From contig CM000432.1 of NCBI GenBank assembly GCA_000165345.1, positions 224,001-288,000 of the forward strand: a DNA stretch of 64,000 nt, in the 5' to 3' direction. The number at the start of each line of letters is the position of its first letter. Positions within the stretch are counted from its first letter, which is position 1. The notes below the pieces were generated by a model. That model was not told the origin of the DNA and did not search any database. It saw nothing but the letters and a program-made list of their open reading frames with translations. The position numbers and the translations under genes are program-made. This document shows, piece after piece, positions 25,947-31,159 of this stretch.

Positions 25947-28022
25947 TTATAATGCTTGATAATTGTTTGCTGTATTATTATTACCATAATTACTATTCAT
26001 ATTAAATCCACTCAAAACTGAAATGATAAATCTCACTCCCTAAATAAATTAACATTGAATAAAGTGAATATAATTGTAAAAAAAAAGTTAGTTATTTGTT
26101 TTGTTAACTTACCTTTAAAACATATAATAATACAATACATGTAATAAAACCAATCAAAAACCAGACAATGTAACCTGCATTATATAAAGAATTTTCATTT
26201 AACATTTCAACAGAAATATTCTCAAGACTTGAAGAATCATCAGAAATCTTAATTTTTTCAATATTAGCATTATTAAATTCCATACTTTCTTTCTTATTAA
26301 TCTTTTTCTGTTGAGCAAATTTACTCTTTTTAAAGAATGTTGAAACCTAAGAAAAAAAAAGTGAAATAGTTAATTTTTGTATGAAATTTTGTTTTCTCTA
26401 ATTAATATATCAGGTAAACTTACATGACAAATTTCTTCTCCATAACATTCTTTTAATCTATTTGTTATAACTTGTCCATTATAAAGCAATCTAATATAAT
26501 AAGGTAGAGATTCTTGAACTAATTCTGCCTCATTGTCATCAAAATAGTCATAATTTTGTCTTTTTTCTATACTTAGTATTGGATTATTATATATCTCAAT
26601 GATAAATGTTGAAGCATATGGTGGCCAATGTTCATCCCAAATCTCTAAAGAAGCCAAAGTTGGAATAACAGTTGTATCATGTCCTGAAAATAAGATAAAT
26701 TTAGGTACTTTAATATGAACACCATCATTTAAAGAATAATAATGTTCATATTTATTACATAATGGATTAAGTAAATATTCAAAATTGGTTAAAGAATCTT
26801 TACCCTTGAAATTTGTACGTTGATTAATAATAGAACATAATCTCTTAATATTAGAAAATTCATCACTTTTGTTTTCATTAAATAATATTACATCCATTAT
26901 ATAATCTCTGACATCAAATAATAATCTGCTCATTTCAGATTTAGATAAAATTGAATCATTCCAAGTATATATTACAGATAATTCTTTTTCTATTGCAGAA
27001 ATAGTTCTATTTAGTAGATTATTTTCTATAAAAGCTTTTGGAAGCTTATTATGATTTCTTGTACAAATAGTTGTCATAATACAGTCCATAATATCACCAG
27101 GCCATAAATCTTTTAATAATGGAGTTCTAATCTTTTCTTCTAATTCTTGATATAAACTTTGATGTTTATCTACAATATCAAAATAAGACTTAGAACTTAG
27201 TGCAGCTTGAAGATGATCTGTAATATTTTCTACATTAGAATTTGCAAACAAATAATCAGACTGAATATCCATTGTATGTAGTGGAAATTTTTGAAATACT
27301 TTAAAAGTTTCCTCTTTGCCAACAAATTCTTCCAATAAACTGGTTAATAATGCAGCAGCAGAAACTGTAGTTCTTTGCATATCTGAAGATCTAATATATA
27401 TTTCATCTCTATAATTATGACCAATTCTTAATCCATTTCTTGTTACAAGATTTTCACCTTGTTTAAAATAAGCCTCAGCAAGTAGTTTTCCATTAATTCG
27501 ATGTTGTTCGTATCCTTGTAAGATTAGTTGACCCATTTTACAAGTTCCATTCAAGTTATTTTCCCATTGTCTAATATCATAATGTTTTGAGAATTCTAAA
27601 GTTTGTGTTCTGTTTCTCATATCAAAAGCCGCTGCTTGAACTGTTGTTACTAATTCGTCACAATTCCAACTTTGATTTAAACCTTCCCAGCATTTATGAT
27701 ACTTGGTTGGAGTTCTTGCACCATGTCTTATAATTGATTGAACTTGAATTAACTTCATTGAATCATATAATTTTGAGTCATTAATTTTGGGGATTTTTCT
27801 GGTTTTCTCAAATACGCTTGGCTCTGCACAAAAATTATAATATTCTGGACATAATCCATTAATAATACACTCTTGATCATTTTCTATAAAAAATTTATCT
27901 TGAGTAACTTCTTTCCATCTTTTGTTACTTAAATCACTATATTCATCCCTGAATTTTCCAAATACAACAAATTGATTCAGTATTAATTCAATTATAAAAA
28001 GTAATAATACAATTCTTTTCAT
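25947..28022 (-). CDS. Histidine acid phosphatase, membrane-anchored, 3 exons (paralog 1 of a tandem pair)
   Basis: Exons on the minus strand are 28022..26424, 26346..26113 and 26039..25947. The introns are 26423..26347 (77 nt, GTAAGT...TTCTTAG) and 26112..26040 (73 nt, GTAAGT...contains ACTAAC...TTTAG). The catalytic signature IIRHGARTP is present. The signal peptide is MKRIVLLLFIIELILNQFVVFG. Exon 2 encodes a transmembrane helix YIVWFLIGFITCIVLLYVL. Confidence 0.75.
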
Positions 28023-28535
28023 TTCTTATTAGTTTCTGAGTTCCAGCTTTGCATACATATATATATATATATATATATTTATATATATATATTAATATAT
28101 ATCTATATATAAATAAATAAATATATATATATATTAATATAATGTATATATTTATTTATATATTTTATTTAATATATACTTCCAATATTTATCTTCAATA
28201 ACTTTTTTTTTTACTTATTTTAACAAATATTCATATTATATTTCACGTGATGTTAATTTGAAGAAAAAAAAAATTATTAAAAAGTTATATTAACTTCTAC
28301 CTTTTTCTCTCTATTGCTTTTTTAATTTCTTTTTTGTTTAAATTTAGATTATTATTCACATTTTCACGATTTTGTAATTAATTCATAATTTTTTGTATAT
28401 TAAGTTAACATATTTTCATTAAATATTTATAATTTTTGTTTCTATAAATTTCAGATTTTTCCCTCTTTTTCTCATTTTTTTCCATATTAATTATTTATCC
28501 AAAAAAAACTTTCTGTTATTTCCTCTTTTTTTTTC

Positions 28536-28590
28536 TTGCATGCGCATATAATTCTTGAATGCATGCATGCATTTTCATGTGGACGAATTA
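28536..28590. promoter_or_regulatory. Cluster CTTGCATGCGCAT...GAATGCATGCATGCATTTTCATGTGGACGAA: three GCATGC boxes plus an ATGTGGAC motif, upstream of acid phosphatase paralog 1
   Basis: Seen directly. The same GCATGC plus ATGTGGAC combination recurs at 59228-59362 and 63567-63662. Confidence 0.4.
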
Positions 28591-29188
28591 TTAATAGGCG
28601 GAAAAAAAAGTCAGTAGATTGTAGAGAGAAGAAAACAAAAAAAAATAAATAACTGATAATGAACTAATATAAAGTATAATTCGGTTTTTACATTAATTTG
28701 GACAAAATTGGTAAATTAATATACTAAACAGACCTCTAGTTTATCTAGAAAACTAATACTGTATGCTTAGAATATTCATTTTTAAAACACATATGATTAA
28801 ACATAATATTATTATTAAAAGAATAATTTTTACAAATGAAAATTCAATCAAATTTAAATAGATTGAATTTTAACACTTTGATCTAGAATTAATTGAATCT
28901 ACAAATTTCAAAATGTTCAATAATATTTAATTCACGCATATTCAATTAATTTCAGAATTTTCGAGATAACATTGTAAGAACAACTGACAATTTTAAAAAT
29001 AAGTTACATACAATTCCTTTGCAATTCTTTGACATGCAATTTAAATTAAAAAAAAAAGATGAGAATTAGAAACCCTTTTTTTTTGTAGTACTTTCACATC
29101 CCCATTAATTTAAAATTAAAACAATAATTCCCTGTTTGATATTTTTGACAAGTTTTAAATATCTTTCAAAGTTTTTATTTAGACAAGA

Positions 29189-31159
29189 TTAATTTGATTT
29201 CGATCTCATAGCCTAATTTATTGTGTTAATAGTTTTCAATTATAAGAAAAAAAGGAATACTTTATATATAACCTACCTTAATTGAATACAATATTATTAG
29301 GGAAGTTAAAGCCCCAAGTAAGAAAGACAAAGAGTAACTTAGGAAAGGAGTATTGATACGATAAACTCCATTGAAATTACCCTCAAGATTCTTTTGGTTT
29401 TTATTAGAAGAACCTTTAACAGAATCTGTCTCATTTAAAGATTTTTCATATTTATTTGTTGATTCTAATATTTCTTTTTTACCAATTTTTTCAAATTTGG
29501 CAAATTTACTTGTTTCGAAAAATTTGTAAGCCTAAAATTAAAATATTAAGTTAATTTAAATGACTTTCCATTAAATTAAAGAAATAAAAAACTTACATGA
29601 CAAATTTCGTTTCCTTCACATCCTTTTAATTTATCTGTTATAACCAATCCATTATATAATAATCTAACATAGTAAGGAAGATTCTTTTGAACTGATTCAA
29701 GTTTTAAAAGACTATTTGCCTCCCCTTTGTATTCCTGTTTTTCATAAGGATCATAATAAATCTCAAAATTAATAGTAGAAGCATAAGGTGGTAAGTGCTC
29801 ATCCCAAGCATGTAACGAAGATAATAATGGAATAACTGTCAAATCATGCCCTGAGAAAAGAATAAATTTAGGTGCTTTAATTTCCTTCTTGGAAGAATTA
29901 TGATACTCATATTTATTACATAAAGGATTGAGCAAATATTCAAAATTCATTAAAAGATCTTGGCTCATAAAAGCTTTGTTTAGAGCAGAATTTGAACATA
30001 ATTCCTTTATGTTTGATAATCCGTCATTTTTATTTTCATAGAATAATATAGCATCAAGTATAAAATCTCTAATTTCATACATAAATCTACTAATATCTGA
30101 TTTGGCTATAATTGAATCATTCCATGTAAACACAGAAGATACTTCTTTTTCTATTGTTGCCATGGTTCTTTCAAGTAGATTATTTTTATAAAAAGCTTCT
30201 GGAAGCTTATTATCATCCCCAGAACATATTGTCATAGATATACAATCAAGTAATTCAAATGGCCAAGATCTATTAAGATCATTTAATTTAGCATCTTTTT
30301 CCAATTCCATATATAAATGTTTACGATCTTCCAACAATTCTTGAAAATTTTTGGAGGTGAAAACATATTTTAATACTCGAGAATTGTCTACGAGGTTCTT
30401 ATTTGCAAACAAATATTCAGAATGAAAATCCATTGTATAAATGGGTAAATTTCTAAATCTTTGGAAAGTTTCTTCTTTACCAAAAATATTTTCTAATAAA
30501 CTTGTAATTAATGCAGCAGCAGAAACTATGGTTCTTTGTGTATCGGATGATCTAATATACATTTGATTTTTAAAATCACTAATTTCCAATCCACTCTTTG
30601 TTACCAAATGTTCTCCTTTAAAATAAGCTTTAGCAAGTATTTTCCCATTAATTCTATGTTGTTCATATCCTTGTGAAATGAGCTGACCCATCTTACAAGT
30701 ATTAGTTAAATTATTTTGCCATTGTTTTGTTTCATAATGTTTTGAGAATTTCAATGTTCGAGTTTTACTTTGTTTTTCAAAAGCTGAAGCGGAAATTAAA
30801 GATTTTAAATCACTACAATCCCAGTTTTGTTTATACCCTTCCCAACATTTAAATGATTTTACTGGAGTTCTTGCTCCATGCCTAGAAACTACTTGTAATT
30901 GAATTAATTCCAATCTATTAAATAGCTCTTCATCTCTTAATCTCGGGATTTTTTTAATTTCTTCAAGGTTGCTAGTATCTGCACAAAGACTAAATTCGGC
31001 AGGATTCACAATTTTTCCCAAATATCCATTTTCATCTACAACAAGATCACTCTCTAATGCATCTGAATTTGATGAAATTGTTTGATTCTTTCGCTCTTGT
31101 TTAATTACACAACCAACAAGGCTGAAAAATGACAGAAGTACAACAACTCTCATTTCCAC
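29189..31159 (-). CDS. Histidine acid phosphatase, membrane-anchored (paralog 2 of tandem pair)
   Basis: Exon 1 is 31159..29597 (VVSRHGARTP signature, signal peptide MEMRVVVLLSFFSLVGC). The first intron 29596..29532 sits at the identical position after ...EICH. Exon 2 is 29531..29277 and encodes a TM helix LSYSLSFLLGALTSLIILY. A putative short last exon 29212..29189 follows the intron 29276..29213, but this last exon is uncertain. The gene has the same orientation and the same exon structure as the gene at 25947-28022. Confidence 0.7.

Follow-up and report, generated by a model that had tools for sequence, protein, structure and literature searches.

The described systems with which the gene pair considered here is best compared are the human acid phosphatases ACP2 and transmembrane ACPP (ACP3). 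The pair lies on chromosome 4 of Cryptosporidium parvum, within a stretch of 64,000 nucleotides (nt) of contig CM000432.1 (hereafter, the window; G+C ~26%), and is formed by the adjacent and co-oriented genes cgd4_910 (CPHLJ_4g910; here, gene A) and cgd4_920 (CPHLJ_4g920; here, gene B). The human enzymes and the predicted Cryptosporidium proteins have in common the branch-2 histidine acid phosphatase fold, the RHGxRxP and HD motifs, and a type-I layout with a short cytoplasmic tail, which in the gene A product carries a Yxx-hydrophobic motif. Lysosomal targeting of ACP2 is tyrosine-based; we know of no classical lysosome described in Cryptosporidium. Different from ACP2 and ACPP, to which they are only 16-20% identical, the Cryptosporidium proteins present a helical cap larger by ~130 residues (a domain of ~430 amino acids [aa] versus a Pfam profile of 354 positions) and an extra cysteine-rich segment at the N terminus, and the motif of copy A sits at the extreme C terminus, as in LAMP proteins.

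Human ACP6 is a soluble mitochondrial enzyme without a transmembrane anchor. Among solved structures it is both the top sequence match (E=3.7e-10) and the top structural match (PDB 4JOB; E=7e-14), a similarity at family level only (19-20% identity). Higher identities (26-34% over the domain) are found with His_Phos_2 proteins of gregarines, diatoms and other protists, some of them labelled "lysosomal acid phosphatase," which keep the same cysteines and catalytic residues; their tails are longer and acidic, compared to the short Cryptosporidium ones. Within Apicomplexa, the secretory-pathway protein GRA44 of Toxoplasma (TGGT1_228170) is secreted and contains an acid phosphatase domain (PMC8949495). 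GRA44, a dense-granule component of the parasitophorous vacuole that is not C-terminally anchored, is likened to the pair by description only, as a lead, and it does not occur among the 120 homologue matches listed.

The two adjacent genes were already pointed out by Xu et al. 2020 (PMC7371110), and the pair, its exon structures and its adjacency are known, so that nothing is added here as a gene finding. The literature on Cryptosporidium histidine acid phosphatases that we retrieved consists of phosphatome surveys and one sentence in Xu et al. 2020, a search by gene identifier gave no main-text mention of cgd4_910 or cgd4_920, and no Cryptosporidium data were found in the reviews on acid phosphatase in gregarines and Apicomplexa. 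Likewise, localisation data for either phosphatase were not found in the literature searched, and both genes were missing from the further supplementary tables searched. What goes beyond the public record is the difference between the two copies, A being conserved and induced in female gametes and B being fast evolving. We put at about 85% the probability that the locus encodes two anchored type-I histidine acid phosphatases, of which A is the ancestral, female-induced copy sorted through its tail and B the derived, fast-evolving copy devoid of the tail motif. The sequence-level observations of an earlier note, made on the letters of this DNA alone, are confirmed, and its core interpretation is supported.

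Gene models and splicing

The two genes, their exons and their introns are listed below.

25947-28022, minus strand: gene A, cgd4_910, 641 aa, 3 exons (spliced translation identical to QOY41982.1; PF00328, E=3.1e-23)
26424-28022, minus strand: gene A exon 1, signal peptide (aa 1-22) and entire catalytic ectodomain (aa ~60-533)
26347-26423, minus strand: gene A intron 1, 77 nt, phase 0, GTAAGT...TTAG, after ...EICH
26113-26346, minus strand: gene A exon 2, juxtamembrane linker and transmembrane helix (aa 592-610, 26116-26172)
26040-26112, minus strand: gene A intron 2, 73 nt, phase 0, GTAAGT...TTAG
25947-26039, minus strand: gene A exon 3, cytoplasmic tail GVRFIISVLSGF...NNYQAL followed by the stop, YQAL at 25950-25961
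29189-31153, minus strand: gene B, cgd4_920, 611 aa, 3 exons (spliced translation identical to QOY41983.1; PF00328, E=6.8e-26)
29597-31153, minus strand: gene B exon 1, signal peptide and catalytic domain
29532-29596, minus strand: gene B intron 1, 65 nt, phase 0, at a position homologous to gene A intron 1
29277-29531, minus strand: gene B exon 2, linker and transmembrane helix (~aa 582-603, 29280-29345)
29213-29276, minus strand: gene B intron 2, 64 nt, phase 0, donor GTAGGT in C. parvum, splicing predicted
29189-29212, minus strand: gene B exon 3, 7-residue tail AMRSKSN followed by the stop, without a tyrosine motif
End at 29262, minus strand: alternative public model of gene B, 608 aa

Spliced at the exon boundaries that the earlier note had proposed, the two genes give uninterrupted proteins of 641 and 611 aa, residue for residue those of the GenBank entries QOY41982.1 (a CPATCC_001576-type entry) and QOY41983.1 (CPATCC_001577). 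Only the start of gene B, placed by the note at 31159, had to be corrected, as that position corresponds to the bacterial-code GTG of the list of open reading frames (ORFs), the eukaryotic ATG being at 31153 (MRVVV...), in agreement with the public models. The description of the genes as head-to-tail tandem paralogs is borne out by their adjacency on the same strand, full-length homology (50% protein identity over 565 aa) and common intron positions, including the one after ...EICH (intron 1). The 3′ exons are indeed absent from the ORF list, where the six-frame ORFs (550 and 527 aa) end inside intron 1.

Public models of the pair are heterogeneous. Chromosome 4 of C. parvum as given in CP029783.1 (GCA_031892065.1) encodes, without any difference, the 1042-aa ORF that neighbours the pair, and at the place corresponding to the pair, called His_Phos_2 genes of 641 and 608 aa are found, the coordinates of the former agreeing with gene A; the 608-aa product of CPHLJ_4g920 leaves intron 2 unspliced and ends in KVGYI before the stop. 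In the 2004 Iowa II set, the models (550 and 525 aa) correspond to the ORFs before splicing and lack the transmembrane exon, and further models of B have odd or partial sizes (168, 339, 489, 523 and 538 aa).

All four introns are in phase 0, measure 64-77 nt and present the donor GTAAGT (GTAGGT in gene B intron 2) and the acceptor TAG. For comparison, we considered the orthologous loci of C. hominis, C. meleagridis, C. ubiquitum, Cryptosporidium chipmunk genotype I, C. canis, C. felis, C. bovis, C. muris and Cryptosporidium sp. SRR31860986, mapping annotated proteins back onto the DNA to place the introns. The splice structure turned out to be conserved in 12 genes of 9 species: both introns occur at the same codon boundaries and in the same phase in every three-exon model of either paralogue, from C. 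muris to C. parvum, and the position and phase of intron 1 are kept in 11 orthologues and paralogues between C. muris and C. hominis. It follows that the introns are older than both the duplication and the radiation of the genus.

Human prostatic acid phosphatase occurs as secreted and transmembrane isoforms through alternative splicing. An analogous situation might be envisaged here, with intron 2 not removed, so that A would end in ...LKVS and B in ...IKVGYI, or with introns alternatively retained, retention of intron 1 giving soluble secreted enzymes. Reading through intron 1 does produce a short in-frame extension before a stop, located 17 codons on in gene A (ORF 26370-28022), where read-through of intron 2 would end the protein in KVS; for B, the 608-aa public model and the GTAGGT donor of C. 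parvum speak in the same direction. We nevertheless regard retention as quite unlikely, as the positions, phase and GTAAGT donors of the introns are kept in all species, and exon 3 of gene A is conserved as coding sequence with a C terminus invariant throughout the genus, whereas the read-through products are not conserved. As for gene B, the donor of intron 2 is GTAAGT in both C. hominis and C. meleagridis, and the acceptor and the 24-nt exon 3 are conserved in three species, encoding AMRSKSN in C. meleagridis, as in C. parvum, and ALKSKSS in C. hominis.

Some annotations in other species stop short of these exons. The public C. bovis model ends at intron 1, with an unannotated exon 2 (transmembrane helix) and exon 3 (NNYLAL followed by a stop) downstream (11549-12044 of the fetched locus), and the gene B model of chipmunk genotype I also ends at intron 1, with the transmembrane exon unannotated downstream (~9600-9900 of the fetched locus). 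The models of C. ryanae, of A and B in chipmunk genotype I, of Iowa II (2004) and of C. tyzzeri look truncated likewise, and CHM_4g910 (620 aa) and CHM_4g920 (538 aa) show internal gaps compared to other models.

Enzyme family, fold and catalytic residues

Both proteins match the Pfam family His_Phos_2 (PF00328) well above its gathering cut-off of 23.6 bits (83.2 bits for A and 91.9 bits for B). The catalytic signature RHGARTP, reported for both in the earlier note, is found at aa 99-105 of A (27708-27728) and aa 91-97 of B (30863-30883), followed by an RSSDxQRT segment (RSSDMQRT and RSSDTQRT in the two proteins) and by the GHD motif, which reads GHDTT in A (aa 447-451, with H448-D449 at 26676-26681) and GHDLT in B (aa 435-439). 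In the family alignment, H100 is invariant in 97 homologues and the other catalytic residues reach 90% conservation or more; throughout the family, eight cysteines are kept, along with the catalytic His, the phosphate-binding Arg and His residues and the Asp of the HD motif. A weak match of an NCBIfam lipoprotein model at the signal peptide of B was sub-threshold and was discarded as spurious.

The AlphaFold2 model of the A ectodomain, built with the 97 homologues, reached a predicted local distance difference test (pLDDT) score of 84.7 and a predicted template modelling (pTM) score of 0.84. When it was compared with the PDB by Foldseek, 94 matches were obtained at E<=0.001, and all the 50 listed are branch-2 enzymes. 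The best of them are ACP6, prostatic acid phosphatase and the histidine acid phosphatases of Francisella and Legionella (E ~1e-13; template modelling score [TM-score] by target, 0.56-0.75), while phytases, glucose-1-phosphatase and MINPP follow at ~1e-8 (TM-score by target, 0.33-0.52). In agreement, the matches of phmmer against the PDB are limited to ACP6, prostatic acid phosphatase and the major acid phosphatases of Legionella and Francisella. The placement with respect to phytases, MINPP and lysosomal acid phosphatases, which the earlier note had left to a phylogeny, thus points by both fold and sequence to the ACP6, prostatic and bacterial enzymes and away from phytase and MINPP. On these grounds, the two proteins would be branch-2 histidine acid phosphatases of the prostatic, lysosomal and ACP6 kind, rich in disulfides and with an enlarged helical cap.

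It could be objected that RHGxRxP and HD are common to all branch-2 enzymes, so that the motifs alone do not discriminate, and that a cap domain ~130 residues larger than that of prostatic acid phosphatase makes the substrate pocket unreadable from homology; the proteins might then be inositol-phosphate phosphatases of the phytase or MINPP type, or even catalytically dead binding proteins. The gap between ~1e-13 and ~1e-8 in the structural comparison, the restriction of the phmmer matches to the ACP6 group and the preservation of every catalytic residue in both copies make these alternatives very unlikely. For the preferred assignment to the prostatic, lysosomal and ACP6 kind, conserved residues and fold suggest a mechanism in which His100 of RHGARTP would attack the phosphomonoester, giving a phospho-histidine intermediate, with the phosphate held by Arg99, Arg103, Arg211 and His448 and the leaving group protonated by Asp449 of the HD motif.

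Predicted membrane anchor and C-terminal tail

The earlier note had described both proteins as having an N-terminal signal peptide and a single transmembrane helix encoded by the exon after intron 1, and hydropathy predicts the same: peaks above 1.6 occur only at the N terminus and in exon 2, where the Kyte-Doolittle 19-residue maximum is 2.59 in A and 1.97 in B. The helix of gene A, YIVWFLIGFITCI, is conserved across the genus. The resulting architecture, with a signal peptide, an ectodomain, one C-terminal helix and a short tail, is predicted to be that of a type-I anchored protein, and the ecto or lysosomal location that the note had derived from it is a reading that the modelled fold fits. 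A C-terminal transmembrane helix is also present in 71 of the 81 non-Cryptosporidium homologues, which indicates that the anchored architecture is ancestral to the family.

The two copies differ in their tails. Proteins of the A type end in ...NYQAL in C. parvum, C. hominis, C. meleagridis, C. ubiquitum, C. canis, C. felis and C. muris and in NYLAL in C. bovis, and outside these terminal residues the tails drift; the conservation of the terminal NYQAL, not shared by the intron read-through products, supports exon 3 of A. B proteins end in AMRSKSN, ALKSKSS or ...NAQIN and have no Yxx-hydrophobic motif. Among the 71 non-Cryptosporidium homologues that bear a transmembrane helix, 23 present a Yxx-hydrophobic motif in the tail and none ends in NYQAL. 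The conservation of the motif at the extreme C terminus in nine species argues against its occurrence by chance.

Motifs such as NYQAL are of the type read by the mu subunits of clathrin adaptors, and, judging from its tail, A may be sorted from the trans-Golgi or the cell surface to an internal post-Golgi compartment. B, without the tyrosine motif, could have undergone sub- or neo-functionalisation through a different destination, which by default would be the parasite surface.

Regulation and expression

According to published RNA sequencing data, A, silent in asexual stages, is subject to strong induction in female gametes: log2 counts per million of cgd4_910 are 0.96 in asexual parasites, which is the detection floor, 6.36 in females in vitro and 8.45 in females in vivo, and the gene is on the top-500 list "Female in vivo only" (Tandel et al. 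2019, PMC6877471, Supplementary files 4 and 7). By clustering of quantitative reverse transcription PCR profiles, cgd4_910 groups with CpCCp1/Cpa135, CpCCP2 and TRAP-C2 (Oberstaller et al. 2013, PMC3734150 Table S2).

The following elements were located upstream of the two genes.

28053-28178, unstranded: imperfect (AT)n compound microsatellite, ~30 nt upstream of the A ATG (Tandem Repeats Finder)
28538-28570, unstranded: three GCATGC (AP2_1, ApiAP2-type), 521-548 nt upstream of the A ATG
31624-31629, unstranded: single GCATGC, 476 nt upstream of the B ATG

Both features that the earlier note had seen in the spacer, the (AT)n array and the triple GCATGC cluster, were recovered. The array (period 2, 64.5 copies, 72% matches) probably belongs to the 5′ untranslated region or the core promoter of gene A, since it starts ~30 nt from the start codon. 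As for GCATGC, the window contains 10 occurrences versus 2.67 expected, a number reached in 0 of 100 shuffles, and all four occurrences in the 16 kb from 20001 to 36000 are those of the A cluster and the B site. One to three copies are found 288-620 nt upstream of A, of B and of the single-copy orthologues in every intestinal species, including B of C. hominis, C. meleagridis, C. ubiquitum and chipmunk genotype I, and none upstream of the C. muris gene. The hexamer forms the core of AP2_1, which is bound in vitro by the ApiAP2 protein cgd2_3490 and by other ApiAP2 domains and is over-represented upstream of co-expressed C. parvum genes (PMC3734150, PMC4117751). The conserved cluster ~0.5 kb upstream of A is a likely control element of this gene.

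Origin and age of the duplication

Between the poly(A) polymerase gene and the WD40 gene that flank the locus, C. muris, C. bovis, C. felis, C. canis and the SRR31860986 species have one copy, with intergenic gaps of 0.5-1.2 kb that are too short to hide a second one. The syntenic pair is present in C. ubiquitum, chipmunk genotype I, C. meleagridis, C. hominis and C. parvum. The pair is thus confined to this group, with which a lineage-specific expansion, raised as a question in the earlier note, would be consistent. The same note had called the duplication old because of the divergence of the proteins, which is only partly right: B evolves several times faster than A, so that an identity of 50% overstates the age of the event, and the pair occurs in one subclade.

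The most economical interpretation is that A is the ancestral copy, which would have kept its place next to the WD40 gene under strong purifying selection, and that a tandem duplication would have given rise to B in the ancestor of the group from C. ubiquitum to C. parvum or a short time before it. In a relaxed site-pattern test, B shares 19 derived sites with A, C. canis and C. felis versus 9 with C. bovis or C. muris, which places it after the split of C. bovis, with no resolution relative to C. canis and C. felis; a strict version of the test retained almost no sites informative for dating.

The opposite reading, formulated by Xu et al. 2020 (PMC7371110) for C. bovis and C. ryanae, is that of a loss: the pair would be ancestral to intestinal Cryptosporidium, and the single-copy species would have lost one member. 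The neighbor-joining tree lends it some support, as the B sequences are monophyletic (100%) and branch outside the clade of A, C. canis and C. felis with 97% bootstrap. The long branch of B, however, likely makes such a basal placement suspect, the 19 versus 9 derived sites put B after the C. bovis split, and the five lineages with exactly one copy, the same neighbours and gaps of 0.5-1.2 kb would imply at least three clean losses, independent of one another. Compared to such repeated losses, a single gain is the more parsimonious scenario, and we consider the loss reading unlikely, though the least unlikely of the alternatives discussed here.

Rates of evolution and gene conversion

The C. 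parvum A protein is 98%, 94% and 83% identical to its orthologues in C. hominis, C. meleagridis and C. ubiquitum, respectively, and the corresponding values for B are 75%, 85% and 54-55%. The ratio of non-synonymous to synonymous substitution rates (dN/dS) is 0.10-0.13 for A and 0.27-0.37 for B, and, when C. parvum is compared with C. hominis, dN amounts to 0.007 in A and 0.141 in B; at non-synonymous sites, B evolves ~3 to 20 times faster than A.

Against a background A-B nucleotide identity of 50-75%, the two genes of C. ubiquitum are 97-98% identical at A aa ~151-195 and 93-96% identical at aa ~431-460, and those of C. hominis and C. meleagridis are 94-96% identical at aa ~166-195; in C. 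parvum, the identity rises up to 83% in the corresponding region (~27440-27570 and 30590-30720). These are short gene-conversion tracts between A and B, two in C. ubiquitum and one each in C. hominis and C. meleagridis.

The faster change of B (54% identity between C. parvum and C. ubiquitum versus 83% for A, and the higher dN/dS), the loss of the tail motif, its absence from the expression tables searched and the fragmentary or odd nature of several public models could be taken to mean that B is a decaying duplicate, drifting under relaxed constraint, rather than a functional second enzyme. We judge this very improbable: B is intact in all five species, with both introns, the signal peptide, the transmembrane helix, RHGxRxP, RSSDxQRT, GHD and the core cysteines, its dN/dS stays well below 1 over a dS of up to 0.86, and GCATGC is retained upstream of it in all five. 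A maintained second enzyme would fit better, one that has kept all catalytic residues and both introns and that, in other species, may have been patched by gene conversion from A.

A divergent C. hominis haplotype over gene B

The comparison of C. parvum with C. hominis delimits one further feature.

28610-31745, unstranded: divergent block over gene B and both its intergenic regions (sliding-window identity, three-species alignment)

Within this block of ~3.1 kb, C. parvum shares 55-86% identity with C. hominis, versus ~98% on both flanks, and the edges are sharp, the block ending just upstream of the conserved GCATGC cluster in the A promoter. The identity between C. parvum and C. meleagridis is ordinary across it. 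With 75% protein identity versus 98% next door, cgd4_920 ranks with the loci of the 16-kb neighbourhood that differ most between C. parvum and C. hominis. In particular, dS between these two species is 0.48 for B and 0.074 for A, and between C. parvum and C. meleagridis it is 0.27 and 0.21; the C. parvum B is nearer to that of C. meleagridis than to that of C. hominis, contrary to the species tree recovered by A.

Two explanations of this anomaly were considered and rejected. Faster evolution of the C. hominis gene does not account for it, given the sharp edges, an effect that extends equally to synonymous and intergenic sites and, for B, a C. hominis branch no longer than the path of its sisters; introgression from C. 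meleagridis into C. parvum is not indicated either, the dS of B between them (0.27) being close to that of A (0.21). With the divergence extending to non-coding and synonymous sites and the branch leading to C. hominis being of no unusual length, the data suggest, as the simplest reading, that C. hominis carries an old haplotype over B, introgressed or long maintained, which looks older than the split between C. parvum and C. meleagridis. No mention of a C. hominis haplotype over cgd4_920 was found in the literature searched.

Neighbouring genes

The genes on either side of the pair, and two long ORFs elsewhere in the window, are the following.

22698-25826, plus strand: WD40 beta-propeller protein, 1042 aa, with Utp21/WDR36-like Pfam matches
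31791-33890, minus strand: poly(A) polymerase, 699 aa
46169-51757, plus strand: low-complexity ORF, 1862 aa
51729-54476, plus strand: low-complexity ORF, 915 aa

All nine species examined keep the WD40 and poly(A) polymerase genes in the same order around the phosphatase locus. The two low-complexity ORFs overlap by 29 nt in different frames and probably form a single large gene, with a short intron between them or a frameshift that splits it.

Discussion

Several points weigh against reading the locus as an ancestral, tail-sorted, female-induced phosphatase and its derived, motif-less duplicate. The neighbor-joining placement of B conflicts with the most parsimonious reading of synteny, unless it is due to long-branch attraction. 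In C. parvum, the second intron of gene B is less certain, the donor being GTAGGT and a rival 608-aa model existing. Yxx-hydrophobic motifs are short, and with 23 of 71 homologues having one, part of the tail signal could be chance. Expression of the second copy is not documented in the sources considered, cgd4_920 not being found in the searched parts of the nine supplementary files of Tandel et al. 2019 nor in the tables of Oberstaller et al. Finally, we infer activity, topology and sorting of both proteins from their sequences and from a structural model.

Several public models, truncated or mis-spliced, could be corrected, namely, those of C. bovis, C. ryanae and chipmunk genotype I, the Iowa II 2004 set and CHM_4g920. 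As for the biology of the parasite, the tail motif separates the female-induced copy from its fast-evolving neighbour and offers a handle on sorting in a parasite whose endomembrane destinations are poorly mapped. The C. hominis haplotype, in turn, could bear on host specificity, introgression or typing schemes. It is tempting to bring these elements together in a tentative scheme, rather unlikely to hold in full, in which A would be an NYQAL-sorted enzyme of an internal post-Golgi organelle of the female gamete, perhaps of the crystalloid-body or wall-forming type, as co-expression with LCCL/CCp proteins would suggest, B would be exposed at the surface and driven to rapid change by host pressure, and the C. 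hominis allele would be introgressed or balanced at a locus resembling gp60. If this were true, cgd4_920 would be a gp60-like locus of host adaptation or an antigen locus.

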